In this document: in pieces, positions 4,775 to 21,473 of the stretch
Numbering within the stretch: position 1 is the first letter of the stretch
Layout of the letters: every line of letters begins with the position of its first letter
Translations under genes and position numbers: made by a program
Virus genome (UHGV): UHGV-1353574
Length of the DNA stretch: 22,731 nt
From: a virus
Direction: 5' to 3' (one strand)
Notes under the pieces: generated by a model
Databases searched by the model: none
Seen by the model: only the letters and a program-made list of their open reading frames with translations
What the model was told of the DNA's origin: nothing

Positions 4775-5110
4775 TTATTTTTGAACTTGGGCTACAGACA
4801 TCGCCCAGATCGGGAGGGTGTGGGAGTCCAGGGCTTCCAGTAGATATTCGACGCGCTCTGACATGATGCCTTCAGGGAAGTTTACTTCTTCCGGCTCGCT
4901 GTTGGCCGTCCAGCCCAGAGACAACCCTTCAGCGTGATGGATGATATAAACGAAGTCGCCAGATTCGTAGTCCTTTTCCATCAGGTCGAAGAAATCTTCC
5001 ATTTCTTCGTCGGAGAAGTAGTAGATGCGAGGTACAGAGCCATCAGCAAAGTGCTCAGCACCCTGGAAGGTAAACATGTCATCAGTGGTGAAGTTCTTGA
5101 GTTGTGTCAT
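4775..5110 (-). CDS. small highly acidic hypothetical protein (111 aa)
   Basis: Track start at 5131 is TTG; first ATG at 5110-5108 with AGGAA upstream. About 24 Asp/Glu in 111 residues and few basic residues. Confidence 0.6.
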   Translation of the reverse strand: MTQLKNFTTDDMFTFQGAEHFADGSVPRIYYFSDEEMEDFFDLMEKDYESGDFVYIIHHAEGLSLGWTANSEPEEVNFPEGIMSERVEYLLEALDSHTLPIWAMSVAQVQK

Positions 5111-5158
5111 GATATAGTTCCTGCTATTCAAGTTGGTGTCGTACTGCTTATGGAATGA

Positions 5159-5187
5159 AGTATAGGGAAGGATATTGAAGAAGTAAA
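5159..5187 (-). promoter_or_regulatory. candidate sigma70-like (T4 early-type) promoter for the 4775..5110 gene
   Basis: Minus-strand TTTACT (rc of 5182-5187), 17-nt spacer, TATACT (rc of 5159-5164). The -35 overlaps the adjacent stem-loop. Confidence 0.3.
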
Positions 5188-5205
5188 GGGGCGTTTGCCC
5201 CTTTT
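5185..5205 (-). terminator. putative terminator hairpin after the 5217..5852 gene
   Basis: AAAGGGGC (5185-5192), loop GTTT, GCCCCTTTT (5197-5205): 8-bp perfect stem, T-rich on both sides, so possibly bidirectional. Confidence 0.45.
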
Positions 5206-11514: not shown

Positions 11515-12042
11515 TCAGATACCGATAAATTCATCAAAAGATCCAACAACCTTCTTCACCGAGATATTGTCATTCTCAATCAGGAAGTTGCTGTCGTTTT
11601 TGGCTGCTGTAGCCCAGTCATCGGCAAGTTCGTTGCCTTCGTGTCCCGCATGACCCTTAACCCATTTTAGTTCAACTTCACAGATTGAACAAACGAGATC
11701 ATAGATTCTGAACAGATCTTTGATGAGTTCAACGTTCTTTTCTGGGAAACCCTGATACTCCCACTTCGTTCGCCATTCGGTGACACTCTTGATGGCATAT
11801 TGGCTGTCAGACCAAATTGTTGCCTTTGGTATTCTGCGCTCACCCTTTCCTGAGAATGCCCACAGTAGCTTCAATGCGTTGGTCACGCCCAACAACTCGG
11901 CGATATTGTTAGTGGACGGGGGAGGTAGATGGCCGAAGAACACCTTCCATTGCATACCCGTTATTGGCCTGATAACAAATGCCCAGCCTGCGGCCTGGTT
12001 GGTCTTCGGGTTAGAACCCCCGTCAGAATAAATTTCTATCAT
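11515..12042 (-). CDS. rnhA: ribonuclease HI (175 aa)
   Basis: Motifs IYSDGG, ELLGV, SDSQY and KGHAGHEGNELADDWA match the RNase HI DEDD catalytic residues. Track start at 12138 is TTG; the first ATG at 12042 gives an N-terminus aligning with E. coli RNase HI. Confidence 0.85.
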   Translation of the reverse strand: MIEIYSDGGSNPKTNQAAGWAFVIRPITGMQWKVFFGHLPPPSTNNIAELLGVTNALKLLWAFSGKGERRIPKATIWSDSQYAIKSVTEWRTKWEYQGFPEKNVELIKDLFRIYDLVCSICEVELKWVKGHAGHEGNELADDWATAAKNDSNFLIENDNISVKKVVGSFDEFIGI

Positions 12043-12044
12043 GA

Positions 12045-12052
12045 TATAAATA
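12045..12052 (+). promoter_or_regulatory. T4-type late promoter box TATAAATA for the plus-strand gene
   Basis: Exact TATAAATA at 12045-12052, 36 nt upstream of the ATG at 12088, in the 45-bp divergent gap between rnhA and the plus-strand gene. Confidence 0.5.
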
Positions 12053-12087
12053 TCCCAAACTGGTTTTATAGAAAGAGGAATGAAACT

Positions 12088-14698: not shown

Positions 14699-14977
14699 TT
14701 ACTTGCCGTTGGCAGCGTTCTTCAGACCTTCGCCCACTTTGAATTTCACAACGTTTTTCGCCGCGATCTGAATGGTCTGGCCGTTCAGAGGGTTGCGACC
14801 TTCACGCGCTTCTTGGTGTTTCACTTCGAACGCACCGAAGCCGACCAGCTGTACAGATGCGCCTGCAGCAACTGCAGTTTTAACACCGTCGATAAAGGAT
14901 GCCACTACTTTCTCCGCTTCGCCTTTGGTGATATTCTGGGTCGAAGCAATGTGGGCAACAAATTCAGTACGATTCAT
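14699..14977 (-). CDS. hup: HU/IHF-family DNA-binding protein (92 aa)
   Basis: MNRTEF...GFGAFEVKHQEAREGRNPLNGQTIQIAAKNVVKFKVGEGLK matches the HU fold signature (N-terminal helix, GRNP arm). ATG 14977 with GGAGA RBS. Confidence 0.85.
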   Translation of the reverse strand: MNRTEFVAHIASTQNITKGEAEKVVASFIDGVKTAVAAGASVQLVGFGAFEVKHQEAREGRNPLNGQTIQIAAKNVVKFKVGEGLKNAANGK

Positions 14978-15102
14978 CTGGATTTCTCCGTTGGGTTAAT
15001 GTTTACTTTCATGTTCACTACAAGAGGGCTACAGTTTAACTAACAAATTTTATTGAATAAAGCGGAATTAATAGCCTTTCACCACGATTACAGTCTTTGT
15101 GC

Positions 15103-15544: not shown

Positions 15545-16207
15545 TTACACCTCCACCGCATGAGACTTCAGGAGTTCATCAATCTCTTTCTGCCCCATGT
15601 ATGAGAACGGGGTGCGCTGGTAGAACGCCCAGAGTACTAACTGGACAACAGCACGGGAACGGGTTTCGGCCGTCATCACCAGGCCACTGAAATGAGGAGA
15701 CTCAGCTGTCCATTGTATCTCTTCGCCCAGGTCTTGATTACAGGTCACCGAGATGCGGAACTTGTTGCACAGATTGTCGACTTCTTTGTACGCATCGGTA
15801 GACACACGAAGTTGTTCCGCATGTGCCCACGGAGTTGTGACGATTCTTTCACCCAACGTCTTTTCTGAAACGAACCAATCAATAGATTGGGTAAACTCGC
15901 TAAAATGGTCGATACGATAAATACAGTCTCCCCCTTCCATAGAACGCATGGCATGATAGCGAGCGTCAATTTCATTGTTGTGCATAGCGTTGAAGTCGAT
16001 GAACACGCGACGCGCCAGCACAACATCTTCTGGTTGAAGTGCCAGGAAATCGTTCAGGCGGCTATAATGGAGGATATTGGAACCGTCGTGGCCACGTGTG
16101 CAATATGCGTAATAGCTACCGATACGGGTGTGGGTAATATAAGACAACGGGGCGAAGAATAATCCGTCAGGATCAGGACCGACGATAATAGAATAAAGTT
16201 TTTCCAT
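15545..16207 (-). CDS. hypothetical protein (220 aa)
   Basis: Track ORF from 16306 would overlap the upstream gene and a hairpin; the ATG at 16207 is preceded by the recurrent CTATATC-ATG context. No recognisable motif. Confidence 0.55.
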   Translation of the reverse strand: MEKLYSIIVGPDPDGLFFAPLSYITHTRIGSYYAYCTRGHDGSNILHYSRLNDFLALQPEDVVLARRVFIDFNAMHNNEIDARYHAMRSMEGGDCIYRIDHFSEFTQSIDWFVSEKTLGERIVTTPWAHAEQLRVSTDAYKEVDNLCNKFRISVTCNQDLGEEIQWTAESPHFSGLVMTAETRSRAVVQLVLWAFYQRTPFSYMGQKEIDELLKSHAVEV

Positions 16208-16228
16208 GATATAGTCACTCAAATGAAA

Positions 16229-16252
16229 GGGCAGCTTTATGATAAGCCGCCC
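16229..16252 (-). terminator. putative terminator after the 16264..17130 gene
   Basis: Minus-strand RNA GGGCGGCUU-AUCAUA-AAGCUGCCC (9-bp stem with one G-U) followed by UUUCAUUU. Confidence 0.45.
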
Positions 16253-16263
16253 GAGGTTATTGA

Positions 16264-17130
16264 TTATTGGAAATCGCCAACATACATGTTCAGCTTGTCG
16301 TCCCAATTCAGAACGACACGGATCGTTCCAGTATCTTCTGGGAAGGTCAGTTTGTCACACATGGCGCGATTAACATAAGTCCCGCTCTGGTTGACGTTGT
16401 AGTCCTTGCCTTGCATGATACCAAAACGCTTGAAGTCGCGAGTGACCATCATGTTCAGAGTTGTCCAAGGGATTGTATCGCGCAGGGCTTTGCACAGGAC
16501 GATCTTGCCATCCGACCTGAACGACACAAACAGCTCGTTGGCGACACGACGGCGAGTAGGCGGTTCAAGTTCACGCAGGGAAATGAATTGTGAATTCTTT
16601 ACCTTTTCTGCCAGCGCCTGTACTTCTGCTGGATCCGGCTTGAACGGCTCCACTGAAGAGTCAGACTTCATCACAACGTCACCCTTGCGCTTCTCAACCA
16701 ATTGCTCCACAGCCTTTTGACTCACGGGAGGGAGGTATTTGGACTTAGGAACAACCGCTGGCTTGATGACAGGGCTTGCATCTGGTTTCGCCTTTGGAGT
16801 ACTCCGAGCCGCACGCAGCTTTTCCTGGGCTTGTAGAATGCGCTCTTGACGAGAAAGCGGAGCCTTTGGGGTGATCTTCGTACTGAAGTCAGAAACGCCG
16901 ACCCAGTCACCCTGGTCGTTGCGCTTGGCGACCAGGGTCAGTTTGTGGATGATACCCTGAAGTTTGCTCTCACGTAAGTTGTCGGCATACCAGAACTTCG
17001 CGCCCATCTCGAACTTCTCGGCGAAGATCACGCGAGCGTCTTCGTGTACCAACATAACTTTGGCTGCGTTGGGGGCAAAAGCCTTATTCTTTTCGATAAT
17101 CGCCGCAGCGATTGTTTTGGTCAGGAGCAT
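16264..17130 (-). CDS. hypothetical protein (288 aa) with a Pro/Lys/Ala-rich central linker
   Basis: Track start 17133 is GTG; the adjacent ATG at 17130 has GAAGGAA upstream. Central segment KAKPDASPVIKPAVVPKSKYLPPVSQK looks like a disordered linker between two domains. Confidence 0.6.
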   Translation of the reverse strand: MLLTKTIAAAIIEKNKAFAPNAAKVMLVHEDARVIFAEKFEMGAKFWYADNLRESKLQGIIHKLTLVAKRNDQGDWVGVSDFSTKITPKAPLSRQERILQAQEKLRAARSTPKAKPDASPVIKPAVVPKSKYLPPVSQKAVEQLVEKRKGDVVMKSDSSVEPFKPDPAEVQALAEKVKNSQFISLRELEPPTRRRVANELFVSFRSDGKIVLCKALRDTIPWTTLNMMVTRDFKRFGIMQGKDYNVNQSGTYVNRAMCDKLTFPEDTGTIRVVLNWDDKLNMYVGDFQ

Positions 17131-18742: not shown

Positions 18743-18901
18743 TTAGCGCATCCATCGATCCTTTCTCTCTTTCTCCTTGCGTTCGCGACGTTTCTGATCG
18801 GATCGGAATAACCAATAGAAGAAGTTCCCACCCAAGATGAAAACCACCGCGATTATTACTAGGACACCCTTCACAATTTCCCAAACCAATTCTTTATCCA
18901 A
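18743..18901 (-). CDS. possible small single-pass membrane protein with a strongly basic tail (about 43-52 aa); start uncertain, no ATG
   Basis: Track ORF 18743..18934 starts with TTG inside the upstream gene. In-frame TTG at 18901 (GAGG 6 nt upstream) or GTG at 18874. Hydrophobic segment VKGVLVIIAVVFILGGNFFYWLF followed by RSDQKRRERKEKERKDRWMR. Lies in a 192-bp gap between genes. Confidence 0.3.
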   Translation of the reverse strand: MDKELVWEIVKGVLVIIAVVFILGGNFFYWLFRSDQKRRERKEKERKDRWMR

Positions 18902-18902
18902 A

Positions 18903-19562
18903 TTATACCTCGTCTTCTTCAGGTCCACCGTCAATCAGGATACGAGCGGTGTCGAAAGTTTCCCCGCCCGTGTTCAACAGCTTGGTTAGATCATCAAGAG
19001 TACCGACAGGACCAAGATCAGCCTGGCGGAGAACGAACTCGAGAAGCCCGTAGAGCGCTGATTGGAATCGGCTGTTGTCGATATCGTTCTTTATTACCAT
19101 CAGGCGTAAGATGTTCTCTGACTGAGTATGGCCAACACACGCCTTGTCTCTGATCATCTCCTTGATAGAACTTCTCTCGGATGGTGTCATAACGTACCCC
19201 CGACAGAGATCAAGAACTCTTCTTGCATGGTCTTGACCGGGTGGTGGTTGCGGGTTTTCGAACATGAAGCCCCAGCCACCGTCGGCGACGTTGCCAAAGG
19301 TCTTGACGCCAAAGGACTTCGTCCCGTTGGAGCAGGAATAGATGTCCAGGACGTATGGGCTACCCTGATTGTCGATCCCACGATTCACGTCGTCTGATAC
19401 GCAGCGCTCAATCATCTTCCCGTTCTTATACAGAACGAGGTCTTGGCCATACGCCTTGAAAGCATAAACACCGTTGGTAGACACTCCGGTGATGACAGGA
19501 GGGGCGGAAACAGCAGCAAAGGAAGCGCCCAGCAGGGCAACAGCGAGGATTAACTTTTTCAT
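18903..19562 (-). CDS. exported hypothetical protein (219 aa)
   Basis: Track start 19583 is TTG; ATG at 19562 gives N-terminus MKKLILAVALLGASFAAVSA, a typical Sec signal peptide resembling the internal MKRLILGVVLAGLALPAAA of the preceding gene. Mature part contains several Cys. Confidence 0.65.
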   Translation of the reverse strand: MKKLILAVALLGASFAAVSAPPVITGVSTNGVYAFKAYGQDLVLYKNGKMIERCVSDDVNRGIDNQGSPYVLDIYSCSNGTKSFGVKTFGNVADGGWGFMFENPQPPPGQDHARRVLDLCRGYVMTPSERSSIKEMIRDKACVGHTQSENILRLMVIKNDIDNSRFQSALYGLLEFVLRQADLGPVGTLDDLTKLLNTGGETFDTARILIDGGPEEDEV

Positions 19563-19586
19563 GATATAGTCTCTTGGTTTCAAATG

Positions 19587-19608
19587 GGCGGGGTATGATT
19601 ACCCCGCC
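19587..19608 (-). repeat. stem-loop repeat copy A (GGCGGGGTA-loop-TACCCCGCC)
   Basis: Perfect 9-bp stem with 4-nt loop (TGAT on plus strand), between the 19615..20121 gene stop and the 19562 start. A near-identical 22-nt element occurs at 20146-20167. Confidence 0.5.
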
Positions 19609-19614
19609 GTGGGT

Positions 19615-20121
19615 TTATAGGGTAACAAGTGATACGGTAAAAACCATCGTCCCGTCTGTTGCCATTTTTCTTGAAACTGGTATGACGCGAGGCTGGCAGA
19701 ATATCCATTCTTTCTCCATGGACGCCAAGTCCAGCATATCCATTTCTGATTCATCGCCTTTGTTCACAAATTTTTCTAGAGAACCATAGACATTAAGCCC
19801 CTCCGGGATTCTGTTTCGATGTTTGTAACAAATGCGGGCAACAGCTTGGGTTCCGTACGATTTAGAAAATTTTTTGGCCACATGCTTCAGTTCACTGAAG
19901 CTAAGGCAAGAATCCCATGTCTGGAACATGTCGCCTCGTTCAAACATCATCCCTAAACGCGCAACGTCCTCTTTAGGCAACCCGCGATAAAGTGTGGTCG
20001 TCTGTGGTTCGCGCAATTCTTGCACCAGATCACGGACGGCAGGGGAAACAGTACCGGGGCGCATGATGTGGGACTTATCATGGACGAGGTAAAATAAATC
20101 TTGAATTTGTTGATCGGTCAT
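19615..20121 (-). CDS. hypothetical protein (168 aa)
   Basis: Track start 20142 is TTG; ATG at 20121 with AGGAA RBS and the recurrent ACTATACC-ATG context. Contains LYRG ... S-x-S ... ESE residues that could be read as an R-S-E ADP-ribosyltransferase-like pattern, but this is weak. Confidence 0.6.
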   Translation of the reverse strand: MTDQQIQDLFYLVHDKSHIMRPGTVSPAVRDLVQELREPQTTTLYRGLPKEDVARLGMMFERGDMFQTWDSCLSFSELKHVAKKFSKSYGTQAVARICYKHRNRIPEGLNVYGSLEKFVNKGDESEMDMLDLASMEKEWIFCQPRVIPVSRKMATDGTMVFTVSLVTL

Positions 20122-20145
20122 GGTATAGTTCCTGCATTTCAAATA

Positions 20146-20167
20146 GACGGGGTAATCATACCCCGCC
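20146..20167 (-). repeat. stem-loop repeat copy B
   Basis: CGGGGTA-ATCA-TACCCCG on the plus strand; its reverse complement TGGGCGGGGTATGATTACCCCG matches copy A (19585-19606) over about 22 nt. Lies between the 20181..20420 gene stop and the 20121 start. Confidence 0.5.
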
Positions 20168-20180
20168 CAAAGTTATAGAA

Positions 20181-20420
20181 TTAACTGATGTGCTTCAGAA
20201 GAGCGAAGAGGATCACGGCCTTGGCCTTTACCTTTCCTACGATGCCTGTCTCGACATCAACTTCTTCAGCAACCCACTCTTTGCCTTTCTTGCTGATGAT
20301 CACGTCACGGCGCTGTGCGTAGACTTCTTTGGTCGCATACACACGACGGAACCCTTTAGCGCGGAGCAATCCCCAATTACGATCAATTTCTACTGAGGTT
20401 TCTACCATTTTGTTCTTCAT
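20181..20420 (-). CDS. hypothetical protein (79 aa)
   Basis: ATG 20420-20418 preceded by TTGAAA-N8-TATATC; stop TAA 20181-20183. Confidence 0.55.
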   Translation of the reverse strand: MKNKMVETSVEIDRNWGLLRAKGFRRVYATKEVYAQRRDVIISKKGKEWVAEEVDVETGIVGKVKAKAVILFALLKHIS

Positions 20421-20471
20421 GATATAATCTTACCTTTCAACCCGGTGAACCCATCGTTCGCCAGTTATTGA

Positions 20472-20501
20472 ATAATAGGACATTCCTTAGAGGAAGTAAA
20501 C
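20472..20501 (-). promoter_or_regulatory. candidate sigma70-like (T4 early-type) promoter for the 20181..20420 gene
   Basis: Minus-strand GTTTAC (rc of 20496-20501), 18-nt spacer, TATTAT (rc of 20472-20477); lies just downstream of the terminator at 20517-20536. Confidence 0.3.
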
Positions 20502-20516
20502 CCCTAAAAGTAAAAA

Positions 20517-20536
20517 TCCCCAACGTTTGTTGGGGA
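20517..20536 (-). terminator. rho-independent terminator after the ACP-like gene
   Basis: Perfect 8-bp stem TCCCCAAC / GTTGGGGA with 4-nt loop; minus-strand RNA followed by UUUUUACUUUUAG. Confidence 0.55.
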
Positions 20537-20542
20537 CTTCTG

Positions 20543-20866
20543 TTATTTGCGCAGGGCAACCACGAGTTCAGCGAGTTCACCCATGGTCGGGTCATCACCT
20601 TTACTACCCAGCCAACCGTCGTCGATTTCGACCTGAAACTCTTCTTCTAGTTCCATTACGATTTCGATGGCATCCAGTTCGTCACCGCCGAGGTCTTTCT
20701 TGGTACGGAGACCAGCCAGCTTGTCCAGGGCGTCCTCGTTCTGAGATGCCACGTCGTCCAGCAATTTGCGCTTGTCATCGTCACGCCACAGATCCATATT
20801 CAGATTGTCAGTGGCGTACTGAGCCAGATGACGCATGACTTCAACATATGTTGGTTTACTGCTCAT
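20543..20866 (-). CDS. acyl-carrier-protein homolog lacking the phosphopantetheine-attachment serine (Ser->Glu), 107 aa
   Basis: ...KDLGGDELDAIEIVMELEEEFQVEIDD... aligns by eye with E. coli AcpP ...[24 protein letters not shown]...; the conserved Ser is Glu (GAA, rc of 20678-20680). ATG 20866 with GGGAGAAG RBS, 1 nt after the upstream stop (TAG-C-ATG). Confidence 0.7.
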   Translation of the reverse strand: MSSKPTYVEVMRHLAQYATDNLNMDLWRDDDKRKLLDDVASQNEDALDKLAGLRTKKDLGGDELDAIEIVMELEEEFQVEIDDGWLGSKGDDPTMGELAELVVALRK

Positions 20867-20867
20867 G

Positions 20868-21473
20868 CTACTTCTCCCAAAGAAAGGCGGGTTGCCCCGC
20901 CCGTTGGATTAGATTTTGATTTTCTTTCTCTGTCAGTTCGGCAGTGACCTTGTACTTCACGCCATCCACTTCAACTTCCATGGTGGACTCTTCCAGGTCG
21001 AGGTCGGTGAACCAGCCGTGGCCAGCAACGATACCATACACCACTTTAGACAGTGTCTTGTTCAGGGCACGGACTTCGGTGATGGCCGCCTTGGCAGCAG
21101 CGTCGATCCAGTTTTCGATCAGCTGTTTCTGTAAGGCTTCAGGCACGGCAGTGATCATAGGAGACTTCACGAATGCTTCGTACTCTTTCAGAGCATTGGC
21201 GATGAACAAGTCACCAGCATTGAGTTTCTTGTTCTCTGCGATCTTCTTCTGTACTGCCGCGATGCTCGGTAGTGAAGACGCCCCGGCGATCTTCACGTTC
21301 AGCTCACGGCTCATGTAGAAGTCGGTAGACTCTTTGGTCTCAGTCTTCGGTGAGAAGCCGTAATCGCGGATGCCGTAGGAGGACAGGAACTCGGCCGCCT
21401 CAGCGCCGTACTGTACTGCCAGGCCTTTGGCGTTACCCTTACCAACCAGGGCGTCTCGATAGAACTTCAGCAC
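20868..21473 (-). CDS. C-terminal segment (about 201 codons) of a large gene that appears split by a +1 frame change; alternatively a separate gene with a GTG start
   Basis: Track ORF starts with GTG at 21473; the first ATG is at residue 54. The upstream ORF ends 35 nt into this frame, and the two frames can be joined at an A-run (minus strand CTGAAAAGG, plus strand tttt at 21487-21490). Confidence 0.5.
   Translation of the reverse strand: MLKFYRDALVGKGNAKGLAVQYGAEAAEFLSSYGIRDYGFSPKTETKESTDFYMSRELNVKIAGASSLPSIAAVQKKIAENKKLNAGDLFIANALKEYEAFVKSPMITAVPEALQKQLIENWIDAAAKAAITEVRALNKTLSKVVYGIVAGHGWFTDLDLEESTMEVEVDGVKYKVTAELTEKENQNLIQRAGQPAFLWEK

Follow-up and report, generated by a model that had tools for sequence, protein, structure and literature searches.

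A predicted leader and ribosome-binding site, joined to hairpin and promoter modules, recurs before small early genes of an Ackermannviridae phage

The repeated motif TTTGAAA-N8-CTATAYC-ATG in the window (the whole stretch of 22,731 nt that was analysed) is, by all appearance, a leader with its ribosome-binding site that small early genes have in common and that is joined to hairpin and promoter modules. These predicted elements would form a three-layer expression cassette which recurs before unrelated genes and allows ORFs to be swapped by crossover from cassette to cassette, and we gave this reading a probability of roughly 0.75. Relatives of the phage showed gene loss, replacement or tandem gain with the junctions inside the cassette. 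The motif statistics, the anatomy of the cassettes and the breakpoints inside them were read directly from the genomes compared.

The window belonged to an Ackermannviridae phage and showed 98.5% identity to Enterobacter phage fGh-Ecl02 over a compared stretch of 2.1 kb. This 2.1-kb region was matched by 222 records, mostly Ackermannviridae, with at least 80% of it covered in only 8 of them. Genome-wide counts were made in a relative genome of 192 CDS. In the window, TATAYCATG occurred six times, always on the minus strand and at an ORF start, compared with 0.16 expected from 100 dinucleotide shuffles, none of which reached six. TTGAAA-N9-TATAYCATG with two mismatches or fewer occurred four times (0.06 expected) and three of these were cassette sites, while the cassette was the top direct-repeat family within the window. 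The start context TATAYC-ATG reported on minus-strand genes in the first-pass annotation was thus recovered at all six of its positions, and the proposed comparison with base composition showed the motif to be enriched at starts; chance or base composition as its source was ruled out by the shuffles. The relative genome had 12 TATAYCATG, of which 10 were at annotated start codons. A census of 13-mer repeats in that genome did not rise above noise (1008 observed, 700 expected) and was redone with 16-mers. Overall, the relative genome carried 10-11 copies of the initiation region, approximately 21 predicted TTCAAT-type promoters and 9 predicted TTTACT-type promoters, most of them ahead of ORFs whose function is unknown; exceptions to this placement were RNase H and some genes of DNA metabolism. 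The features of the window are as follows.

20175..20180, minus strand: cassette 1, predicted upstream box TTCTAT (family motif TTCAAT), after the stop codon of the 79-aa gene, from the TTCAAT-N14-TATAAT scan
20144..20169, minus strand: cassette 1, predicted GC-rich hairpin TGGGCGGGGTATGATTACCCCGTCTA (-19.4 kcal/mol), whose apex holds the -10-like TATGAT (20155-20160)
20122..20143, minus strand: cassette 1, predicted leader and initiation region TTTGAAATGCAGGAACTATACC, with a U/A-rich tract, the Shine-Dalgarno AGGA and the spacer ACTATACC
19615..20121, minus strand: variable 168-aa gene, ADP-ribosyltransferase-like (phrog_832 'RNA polymerase ADP-ribosylase', E 1.3e-14)
19587..19608, minus strand: cassette 2, predicted hairpin GGCGGGGTAATCATACCCCGCC, with the stem of cassette 1 and the inverted loop ATCA (TATGAT becomes TAATCA)
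19563..19586, minus strand: cassette 2, predicted leader and initiation region CATTTGAAACCAAGAGACTATATC, adjoined by the hairpin, before the lipoprotein-like gene (ATG 19560-19562)
16229..16264, minus strand: cassette 3, predicted promoter, ATCAAT (16259-16264), N14, -10 TATCAT (16239-16244)
16229-16252, minus strand: cassette 3, predicted hairpin GGGCGGCTTATCATAAAGCTGCCC (-18.2 kcal/mol), centred on the -10 TATCAT and followed by TTTCATTTGA
16208..16228, minus strand: cassette 3, predicted leader and initiation region TTTCATTTGAGTGACTATATC, adjoined by the hairpin (ATG 16205-16207)
20517..20536, minus strand: cassette 4, predicted terminator hairpin TCCCCAACAAACGTTGGGGA with TTTTT directly after it, ahead of the 79-aa gene
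20472..20500, minus strand: cassette 4, predicted sigma70-like early promoter TTTACT-N17-TATTAT (consensus scan, 9/12)
20421..20440, minus strand: cassette 4, predicted initiation region TTGAAAGGTAAGATTATATC before the 79-aa gene (ATG 20418-20420)
5185-5205, minus strand: cassette 5 (5159..5205), predicted hairpin AAAAGGGGCAAACGCCCCTTT, running into the TTTACT promoter
5182-5187 and 5159-5164, minus strand: cassette 5, predicted promoter TTTACT, N17, TATACT (consensus scan, 9/12)
5111..5131, minus strand: cassette 5, predicted initiation region TTGAATAGCAGGAACTATATC before the 111-aa gene 4775-5110 (ATG 5108-5110)
12043..12059, minus strand: partial initiation motif TTTGGGATATTTATATC before the RNase H gene (ATG 12040-12042), with no hairpin

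Each motif site would lie at the 3' end of a compact, three-layered expression cassette. The first layer would be a promoter of one of two kinds, either TTCAAT-N14-TATAAT with a GC-rich inverted repeat centred on the -10 (at 20121 and 16207, degenerate at 19562) or, at 5110 and 20420, TTTACT-N17-TATAYT behind a hairpin. The second would be a hairpin of about -18 to -19 kcal/mol, formed in read-through RNA from the upstream gene and acting as a leaky terminator or attenuator, and then a short U-containing tail which takes in the TTTGA of the motif. The third would be a short leader (about 25 nt, given a transcription start about 7 nt past the -10) in which an A/U-rich TTGAAA tract, an AGGA-type Shine-Dalgarno (-12 to -9) and a G-poor CTATAYC spacer abutting the ATG would produce an open and efficient ribosome-binding site. 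Crossover between cassettes by the recombination system of the phage, which would delete, insert or replace the intervening ORF, seems possible because identical stretches of 16-44 nt recur before unrelated genes. The activities in this scheme (promoter, terminator and translation), the point where transcription starts and the way recombination proceeds are predictions here. The first-pass annotation had treated the cassette as one unit; the repeat is real but merges three elements with different distributions, namely the ATC/TAYATC context found genome-wide, TTGAA at -21 in approximately seven genes, and the particular hairpin, which has a single copy in each of the 13 related contigs carrying it.

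The site downstream of the hairpin of the 79-aa gene (slot A) held different genes among the relatives. The lipoprotein gene followed directly after the hairpin and initiation region in A221, pertopsoe, Maynard and others, while the 168-aa ADP-ribosyltransferase-like gene was present in the window, ZQ1, L017 and L024, denV in P46FS4, L012, L021 and L027, a 92-aa gene in L015 and L019, and yet another sequence in L023. Versions of the cassette 1 leader with 1-3 nt different preceded four to five different ORFs in relatives. In the window a copy of the hairpin and initiation region stood on each side of the gene 19615..20121, as the first-pass annotation had noted. The deletion junction fell within the common ATTTGAAA, and in genomes without the 168-aa gene it consisted of the hairpin and TCTATTTGAAA joined to CCAAGAGACTATATCATG. 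For denV, the 3' junction was TGA joined to AGAGACTATATCATG. In ZQ1, an extra gene was bracketed by a 44-nt direct repeat which included the cassette 4 hairpin and -35 box and ran through TTTACTTC.

At the second site (slot B, gene start 5110), three unrelated ORFs were found after a common promoter and leader in the window (111 aa), Vi01 (91 aa) and P46FS4 (123 aa), with initiation regions that differed at 2-4 positions. AG3 carried the Vi01 and P46FS4 genes in tandem, the gap between them being TAA-TTTGAACCGAAGGAACTATATC-ATG only, and the initiation region of the window looked chimeric between the two copies in AG3. Against Kuttervirus records, BLAST matches stopped at approximately 5097-5108 of the window. 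The cassette 5 promoter and leader were also found in the relative genome at another locus, before an unrelated protein. The synteny comparison therefore bore out that the presence of genes flanked by cassettes varies and that the breakpoints fall within the cassette. The wider proposal that the motif genes are exchangeable modules was right for slots A and B but not for the genes at 16207 and 12042. No cassette-mediated exchange was seen for the 16207 gene in comparison with LIMEstone1, where the cassette and both protein ends were kept and the difference was an internal in-frame indel (approximately 170 internal residues absent in LIMEstone1), and no cassette-mediated swap was seen for the RNase H gene at 12042 (RNase_H PF00075, E 5e-25). 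The conserved initiation regions at the junctions could also result from selection on each gene after illegitimate insertion, and not from repeat-mediated recombination.

As judged from sequence, the motif is a translation-initiation region of about 24 nt, made of TTGAA(A), an AGGA-type Shine-Dalgarno, the CTATAYC spacer and ATG, and is not a promoter; the predicted promoter sits upstream of it. A Shine-Dalgarno-like sequence (AGGA, GAG or GGTAAG) was found 8-10 nt ahead of the ATG at all six sites, and the stretch written as N8 in the first-pass annotation is not arbitrary but contains it. TTGAA peaked at -21/-20 in seven genes of the relative genome, and G made up 56-63% at -11 to -9, marking the Shine-Dalgarno. 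The start regions of motif genes (-25..+25) were less structured than others, with a median of -3.1 compared with -5.5 kcal/mol (Mann-Whitney p = 2e-4). The translation-initiation role that had been suggested for the motif was supported by the correct Shine-Dalgarno spacing, the position of the motif against the start codon and these less structured initiation regions. Part of the motif is a general start-codon context and not specific to the cassette, since ATC preceded ATG in 34 of the 192 genes of the relative genome, including the capsid and portal genes. A sigma70 promoter made of TTGAAA and TATATC was rejected, in agreement with the first-pass annotation, because the spacer is 8-9 nt and the start site would fall inside the ORF. 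A coding extension from the in-frame TTG of TTGAAA (ORF-list starts 5131, 19583 and 20142) was dropped because the TTG is out of frame at 20420 and a Shine-Dalgarno lies between TTG and ATG. Pairing of the AUC-containing spacer with the 3' end of 16S rRNA, inspected by hand, did not fit in register.

The AUG-proximal ACUAUAUCAUGA might instead, or in addition, be the operator of a RegA-type translational repressor which shuts off an early-mRNA regulon at the start codon, a reading that is compatible with the expression cassette and that we regard as unlikely. RegA of T4 binds AU-rich sites that take in the initiator AUG, and the motif resembles its operators as a short AU-rich stretch over the initiator AUG common to several early mRNAs. 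A clear RegA homologue is present in the closest relative (PF01818 Translat_reg, E 2e-34; phrog_242), with none in the window, and the full motif is mostly on promoter-proximal early genes, namely five of the nine genes with TTTACT promoters and the genes with hairpin promoters. However, the ATC/TAYATC context is also on late structural genes (capsid, portal, scaffold and tailspike), the motif has no known sequence similarity to the T4/RB69 RegA consensus sites, and homologues of the T4 RegA targets gp44, gp45, gp62, regA, rIIB and dexA do not carry the motif, with only a weak variant at rIIA.

The first-pass annotation had described the cassette without promoters and had overlooked the predicted ones, which lie within the hairpin at 20121 and 16207 and after a separate hairpin at 5110 and 20420. 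A scan for TTCAAT-N14-TATAAT allowing one mismatch in each hexamer gave the predicted cassette 1 promoter. Sites 20180-20155 and 16264-16239 both had one mismatch per hexamer and exactly N14, at 33 and 31 nt from the ATG, and were among nine sites with two mismatches or fewer in the window (1.2 in shuffles). TTC(T/A)ATAA was kept in the related loci examined, while the next approximately 5 nt were variable. The relative genome had 21 TTCAAT-type sites upstream of genes, 15 of them with the -10 at 28-43 nt from the ATG, and a hairpin of -10 kcal/mol or lower was centred on the -10 in 8 of the 21 compared with 11.6% of all TATNAT sites. TTTACT-N16-18-TAnnnT was present upstream of nine genes, eight at 43-73 nt and the ninth at 28 nt. 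The TATATC start context was found in five of these nine genes, four of the five with TTGAA at -21/-20. In the window, the predicted TTTACT promoters at 5110 and 20420 were preceded by AATAATTCAATAAA-type AT-rich DNA.

In the TTCAAT-N14 class a 14-nt spacer is too short for ordinary sigma70 contact with the -35, and the class may need an activator. The hairpin at 19562 cannot be a promoter in the window because its flipped loop destroys the -10. T4 middle promoters have the geometry Mot box-N12-TAnnnT, and TTCAATAA-N12-TATAAT is identical in geometry. It is conceivable, though doubtful, that the -10-centred inverted repeat with the TTCAATAA box 12 nt upstream marks activator-dependent middle-type promoters with a loop-inversion switch, or that GGAACUAUAUCAUGA is the operator of a regulon; either would take the cassettes beyond passive PeSL-like linkers. 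For the promoter-class part, this could be a candidate activator-dependent class in a phage family without recognisable MotA/AsiA. If true, the 4-nt loop inversion (TATGAT to TAATCA, seen between near-identical phages) would be a heritable on/off switch for single genes; on the second of these readings, the shared leader ending in GGAACUAUAUCAUGA would be a post-transcriptional regulon operator (RegA or antisense RNA) governing host-takeover genes.

Of the six sites, only three had a hairpin adjoining the motif; for 5110 and 20420, a hairpin and a predicted promoter were 50-90 nt upstream. RNA folding of the three adjoining hairpins gave -18.7, -19.4 and -18.2 kcal/mol with z of -4.0, -2.4 and -3.0 against shuffles, the first value of each set being that of cassette 2. 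The 22-mer TGGGCGGGGTATGATTACCCCG occurred exactly twice in the window, at 19585-19606 (plus) and 20148-20169 (minus), the copies being 100% complementary and flanking the 168-aa gene. The first-pass annotation had placed the first copy correctly and the second 2 nt off, at 20146-20167. Its opposite orientation of the hairpins reduces to inversion of the 4-nt loop (TGAT and ATCA) within a palindromic stem; in the closest relative, fGh-Ecl02, the loop was TGAT in both copies, which makes them a direct repeat. The 18-mer core of the hairpin was found once in each of the 13 IMG/VR Ackermannviridae contigs carrying it, always at the same locus, and the hairpin was duplicated only where the 168-aa gene was present. 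For this survey an exact-pattern scan with the core was more productive than a search with the lipoprotein N-terminus, which gave five loci only. The cassette 3 hairpin was kept in LIMEstone1, where all nine stem pairs are possible allowing G-T (G-U). In the terminator scan of the window, neither 22-mer hairpin was flagged and no canonical U-tract was found for them; only the hairpin at 16252-16229 was flagged.

Stable hairpins directly upstream of an A/U-rich single-stranded tract would also suit an RNA processing or stability element, in which the hairpin and the AUUUGAAA tract cut polycistronic early RNA into monocistronic units by letting in RNase E or RNase III, or serve as a 3'-end stabiliser. 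The hairpin with (C/T)ATTTGAA was upstream of five genes in the relative, with gp44 and a gene of 672 aa among them. Stem changes between phages leave all pairs possible with G-U allowed, which fits a structure at the RNA level. We nevertheless consider such an element improbable. Half of the motif sites have no adjoining hairpin, and a promoter plus terminator already accounts for the TTC(A/T)ATAA box and the apex TATNAT. The RNA-processing role offered in the first-pass annotation found no support. No RNase cleavage consensus was identified, and a known RNA family as the identity of the cassette was rejected after an Rfam search of the window gave no match.

It is very improbable that the opposite strand is the active one, with CATGRTATAGT as an extended -10 promoter (TGnTATAgT) producing a short antisense RNA over the ribosome-binding site. 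The consensus scan did show TTGAAT-N17-TATAGT with an upstream TG on the plus strand at 20101-20129, and TGnTAnAnT was antisense exactly over start codons 11 times in the relative compared with approximately 0.2 expected. However, this enrichment and the sense-strand motif are one signal, and the enrichment therefore adds nothing independent. Genome-wide, TGnTAnAnT was not enriched (86 compared with approximately 75 expected), with only nine non-start sites outside coding DNA, which shows no general use of extended -10 promoters by the phage; the hairpins also lack a U-tract in the antisense direction. Finally, autonomous spread of the hairpin unit through the genome as a mobile repeat (MITE- or REP-like) is barely credible and a dispersed mobile hairpin was ruled out, as the two apparently opposite 22-mers around one gene are outweighed by the single core copy in all 13 carrying contigs, the lack of target-site duplications and of terminal inverted repeats beyond the stem, and the different sequences of the other hairpins of the genome.

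Gene regulation in the Ackermannviridae is almost unexplored. Phages of this family find wide use in biocontrol and in the detection of Salmonella, E. coli O157 and Dickeya, and its regulatory motifs were probably first defined in the Viunalikevirus paper. Identification of early promoters was reported as not possible in the 2011 CBA120 paper, the words 'promoter', 'transcription', 'regulatory' and 'terminator' never occur in a 2024 review of the family, and a literature search found no transcript-mapping study of Ackermannviridae. The cassettes would place predicted early transcription units, promoters and ribosome-binding sites on a concrete map. They would explain the swapping of accessory genes, such as the ADP-ribosyltransferase-like gene and the DNA-repair glycosylase denV, at fixed slots of otherwise syntenic genomes, and may serve as natural 'landing pads' with their own predicted promoter and ribosome-binding site for payload genes.

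The likeness to the promoter-early stem-loop (PeSL) cassettes that T4-type phages carry (Arbiol et al. 2010, PMC2839356; Comeau et al. 2014, PMC4122927), proposed in the first-pass annotation, matched feature by feature at the level of sequence. The order was the same: a stop codon upstream within AT-rich DNA, a predicted promoter, a polyG/polyC stem-loop, and the Shine-Dalgarno with the start codon 3'. The predicted stem-loop was directly upstream of the -35 at 5110 and 20420 and centred on the -10 at 20121 and 16207, and a stem-loop ahead of the promoter or over the -10 box is among the commonest PeSL arrangements (PMC2839356, PMC4122927). Both kinds of cassette precede small genes of unknown function, and in both the indel or replacement junctions between close relatives fall in cassettes, 16207 being the exception here. 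In contrast, the host family here is Ackermannviridae while PeSLs are in Straboviridae, half of the cassettes have TTCAAT-N14-TATAAT and not the PeSL consensus TTGACA-N17-TATAAT, and the most shared segment is the leader with the ribosome-binding site (TTGAA..GGAACTATATC-ATG), where several junctions fall, and not the promoter or hairpin. PeSLs of phi1/RB49 have promoter and terminator activity and mini-circles by experiment, whereas the present cassettes are predicted from sequence. The cassette is best described as a PeSL-type cassette in a phage family different from the T4-type phages, which would extend the PeSL shuffling model beyond Straboviridae.

The cassettes also resemble the PmSL of phage nt-1 (Comeau et al. 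2014, PMC4122927) in having a box near -30, approximately 12 nt, a -10, a stem-loop and SD/ATG, but the MotA box has a sequence unrelated to this box, and no MotA/AsiA homologue has been reported for Ackermannviridae (PMC3184105). A paper on an Ackermannviridae genome (PMC7283392) lists TTCAAT[N14]TATAAT among regulatory motifs, and the second motif quoted there was found upstream of late genes in the relative genome. Unlike that listing, the cassettes described here add the overlapping hairpin, the common leader and ribosome-binding site and the link to gene shuffling. The predicted promoters at 20121 and 16207 were 2-mismatch versions of the first listed motif.

The region 18800-20900 of the window (2.1 kb) showed 98.5% identity to Enterobacter phage fGh-Ecl02 (ON212266) and matched 222 phage records; except for a few, these were from Ackermannviridae infecting Salmonella, Escherichia, Dickeya or Shigella. 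The genes of the window were nearly all on the minus strand and included those for late sigma factor gp55, gp46/gp47, a helicase and RNase H. No Rfam family matched anywhere in the window. Reading of the sense strand confirmed that the motif TTGAAA...CTATAYC-ATG lies at six gene starts (5110, 12042, 16207, 19562, 20121 and 20420, that at 12042 being partial). TATAYCATG was present six times in the window, always on the minus strand and at an ORF start, against 0.16 expected and with none of 100 shuffles reaching six, while the longer pattern with TTGAAA gave 3 true matches against 0.06 expected. A repeat search showed the cassette to be the largest direct-repeat family in the window. The 22-mer TGGGCGGGGTATGATTACCCCG was found in two copies as the first-pass annotation had claimed, at 19585-19606 (+) and 20148-20169 (-), the second placed 2 nt away from the position it had been given. 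Folding produced three hairpins of -18.2 to -19.4 kcal/mol, well under the shuffled controls. Overall, the motif and its cassette are a real and statistically solid feature.

Start contexts were compared over all gene starts of the assembled fGh-Ecl02 genome, the closest complete one (153,282 bp, 192 annotated CDS). TATAYCATG was found 12 times, 10 of them at annotated start codons. G made up 56-63% of bases at -11 to -9, which indicated the Shine-Dalgarno (SD) position, and the bases preferred after it were A(-8), T(-6), A(-5), T(-4), A(-3), T(-2) and C(-1). ATC at -3 to -1 preceded 34 of the 192 genes (approximately 3 expected), early and late alike, the late ones including capsid, portal and scaffold genes. 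The 3' half of the motif (TAYATC) is the general start-codon context of the phage, and the full 24-nt motif was confined to approximately 10 promoter-proximal early genes. TTGAA showed a sharp peak at -21/-20 (7 genes). The commonest hexamers before the start codon were TATATC, TACATC, ATTATC and TGTATC, an unusual context. Since the eight variable nucleotides of the motif contained AGGA, GAG or GGTAAG at SD distance in every case, the unit is predicted to be an extended ribosome-binding site composed of an A/U-rich tract, SD, G-poor spacer and ATG. In keeping with this, motif genes had weaker structure around the start (-25 to +25; median -3.1 kcal/mol) than the remaining genes (median -5.5 kcal/mol; p = 2e-4). 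An additional level of control, with phage RegA binding the motif RNA GGAACUAUAUCAUGAC as a translational operator, would be plausible in view of the clear RegA homologue (PF01818, E 2e-34) encoded by the relative, but it is unlikely, as the ATC context is common to late genes and homologues of T4 RegA targets lack the motif. The RegA gene was located at ON212266 70146-70610 (L007 20146-20610), beside the clamp-loader genes. The cassette had earlier been proposed as a translation-initiation or RNA-processing signal; the first part is supported by the SD, the ATG end and the low structure, while evidence for an RNA-processing element was only circumstantial and we regard it as improbable. Read from the opposite strand, the motif gives CATGRTATAGT, which fits the consensus of an extended -10 promoter; in the relative, 11 sites of this kind overlie start codons. 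However, these are the sense motif signal viewed from the other strand and TGnTAnAnT was not otherwise enriched (86 vs approximately 75 expected), which makes an antisense promoter very improbable next to an extended ribosome-binding site.

Alignment of intergenic TATNAT hexamers showed a conserved TTCAATAA box 12 nt 5' of the hexamer. Box and hexamer together form TTCAAT[N14]TATAAT, one of two regulatory motifs reported for the genome of the Ackermannviridae phage EspM4VN (PMC7283392). At ≤2 mismatches, the window contained 9 sites compared to 1.2 in shuffles. Two predicted promoters from this TTCAAT[N14]TATAAT scan belong to cassettes:

20180-20155, minus strand, predicted promoter TTCTAT-N14-TATGAT
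16264-16239, minus strand, predicted promoter ATCAAT-N14-TATCAT

In both, the -10 hexamer occupies the apex of the hairpin, with TA as the last two stem bases and TNAT as the loop. In fGh-Ecl02, a hairpin of ≤ -10 kcal/mol was centred on the -10 in 8 of 21 TTCAAT-type sites, compared to 11.6% among all TATNAT sites, and the distance from -10 to ATG was 28-43 nt in 15 of the 21. Conservation across the related loci that were compared covered TTC(T/A)ATAA and the hairpin but not the approximately 5 nt between them, which varied. At 5110 and 20420, the hairpin stands apart and the predicted promoter, TTTACT-N17-TATACT/TATTAT, comes after it. This promoter class was found 28-73 nt 5' of nine fGh-Ecl02 genes (eight at 43-73 nt), five of which had the TATATC start context. 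The first-pass annotation had missed the promoter, which is predicted to lie upstream and, in half of the cases, to be embedded in the hairpin. Hairpin plus (C/T)ATTTGA was found at five genes, and the TTTGA after the hairpins may also provide a weak terminator with its short, U-containing tail. In the window, inversion of the loop in the second hairpin copy (19587-19608) turns TATGAT into TAATCA, so this copy cannot be a promoter. The 4-nt loop (within 19594-19601) reads ATCA in the window, phage ZQ1, L013 and L024, and TGAT in fGh-Ecl02 (ON212266 80459-80510). Such a 4-nt flip, which makes or destroys a -10-like TATGAT, is what template switching in a palindrome would be expected to produce.

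Gene content after the hairpin 3' of the 79-aa gene (slot A) was compared in 13 IMG/VR contigs found by the hairpin core and in GenBank relatives. What followed this hairpin and its leader was a lipoprotein-like gene directly, the 168-aa gene of the window (ADP-ribosyltransferase-like, phrog_832, E 1e-14), denV, a 92-aa gene or, in L023, yet another sequence whose first sizeable ORF has 95 aa. In insert-free genomes the junction was hairpin-TCTATTTGAAA|CCAAGAGACTATATCATG, which places the breakpoint within the shared ATTTGAAA. At its 3' end, denV had the junction ...TGA|AGAGACTATAT(C/T)ATG before two different downstream genes. The 168-aa gene was always between two cassette copies, also in L024, where the 92-aa gene comes next. 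An autonomous mobile hairpin is excluded, since all 13 related contigs with this hairpin had only one copy of it each. Downstream, the lipoprotein-like gene and the next 95-aa gene form a single 219-aa ORF in the window (18903-19562, minus strand), and A221 and other relatives have two genes (124 aa and 95 aa) with an ATGA overlap. The frame shift is a 1-nt difference after ...GFMFE and represents either a true fusion or a sequencing error.

At 5110 (slot B), hairpin, promoter and leader were conserved from Agtrevirus to Kuttervirus with the ribosome-binding site differing at only 2-4 positions. The ORF that began at the ATG was of 111 aa in the window, whereas Vi01 had an unrelated one of 91 aa and P46FS4 another unrelated one of 123 aa. 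In AG3 the 91-aa gene and the 111-aa gene stood in tandem with nothing but TAA-TTTGAACCGAAGGAACTATATC-ATG between them, and the ribosome-binding site of the window resembles a chimera formed from both AG3 copies. In phage ZQ1, an extra gene 5' of the 79-aa gene was bracketed by a 44-nt direct repeat (terminator hairpin and -35 box). The proposed gene shuffling by PeSL-like cassettes was supported by synteny at slots A and B and by this third insertion. In addition, a single promoter/leader cassette type preceded two proteins without detectable similarity at two loci of fGh-Ecl02. The earlier suggestion that the motif marks exchangeable genes held at both slots but not for two other genes. In Dickeya phage LIMEstone1 the cassette of the 16207 gene is retained, and the difference is an in-frame indel of approximately 170 residues within the gene; for the gene at 12042, with a clear RNase H domain, no swap was seen. 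The 16207 product is a 220-aa 'ImpD-like' protein (15545-16207, minus strand) with a 50-aa counterpart in LIMEstone1 (L031 761-913); the first 9 and last approximately 40 residues align, which indicates the in-frame insertion or deletion. Identity to Salmonella phage Maynard (Kuttervirus) reached 99.1% in segment 16157-16500 and was only approximately 91% around 18800-20900; the 99.1% match stops approximately 50 nt within the 16207 ORF and looks like a recent mosaic exchange. Outside the window, a 76-aa gene is flanked on both sides by the 27-nt direct repeat GGGTGAGAGGTATTATTGCCCCGTCTA (ON212266 59777-59803 and 60038-60064), a hairpin whose apex carries TATTAT; this is a second case of a gene between two hairpin-promoter copies.

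PeSLs, the promoter-early stem-loop cassettes of T4-type phages, were defined by Arbiol et al. 2010 (PMC2839356) and Comeau et al. 2014 (PMC4122927). They comprise the stop codon of the upstream gene within AT-rich DNA and a sigma70-like promoter, are concentrated 5' of ORFans in hyperplastic regions and bound indels between close relatives; mini-circles delimited by the cassettes have been demonstrated for them. At sequence level the cassettes here share the other features, with predicted sigma70-like promoters at 5110 and 20420 and predicted promoters of non-canonical 14-nt spacing at 20121 and 16207. However, they occur in another family, Ackermannviridae; half use the N14 promoter type, with a geometry like T4 middle promoters (TTCAATAA-N12-TATAAT shares it) and the middle-promoter PmSL variant; and no other segment is as well conserved or as often recombined as the leader with ribosome-binding site. 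The literature search found no mention of PeSLs together with Ackermannviridae, and a 2024 review of the family was without the words promoter, transcription, regulatory and terminator. The cassettes would thus be a further PeSL-type case, with putative promoter, terminator and translation activities.

Other regulatory elements were also observed. Relatives annotate a 92-aa gene (14699-14977, minus strand) as 'transcription factor' or 'DNA binding protein'; a TTCAAT-N13-TAAACT site of its own lies in the upstream region 15033-15057. A small protein of this kind would be a candidate activator for TTCAATAA-N12-TATAAT promoters, given their T4 middle-promoter geometry. The gene of the window that starts at 1564 is preceded by a T4-like TATAAATA-type box (cttATAAATAa). 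Two tailspike genes and uvsW have the published late-type motif CTAAATACCCC immediately 5', within repeats of 17-40 nt (ON212266 30819-30858, 32999-33038 and 65695-65711). A 672-aa protein (ON212266 72906-74924), annotated as similar to 'putative DNA-directed RNA polymerase', had no Pfam match and hit only PHROG families of unknown function; its gene is preceded by a hairpin and ACATTTGAAC, then by a ...GACTACATC-ATG ribosome-binding site. Finally, two long inverted intergenic repeats of ON212266, 28 nt (23778-23805 / 110669-110696) and 20 nt (67770-67789 / 110646-110665), join three distant intergenic regions.
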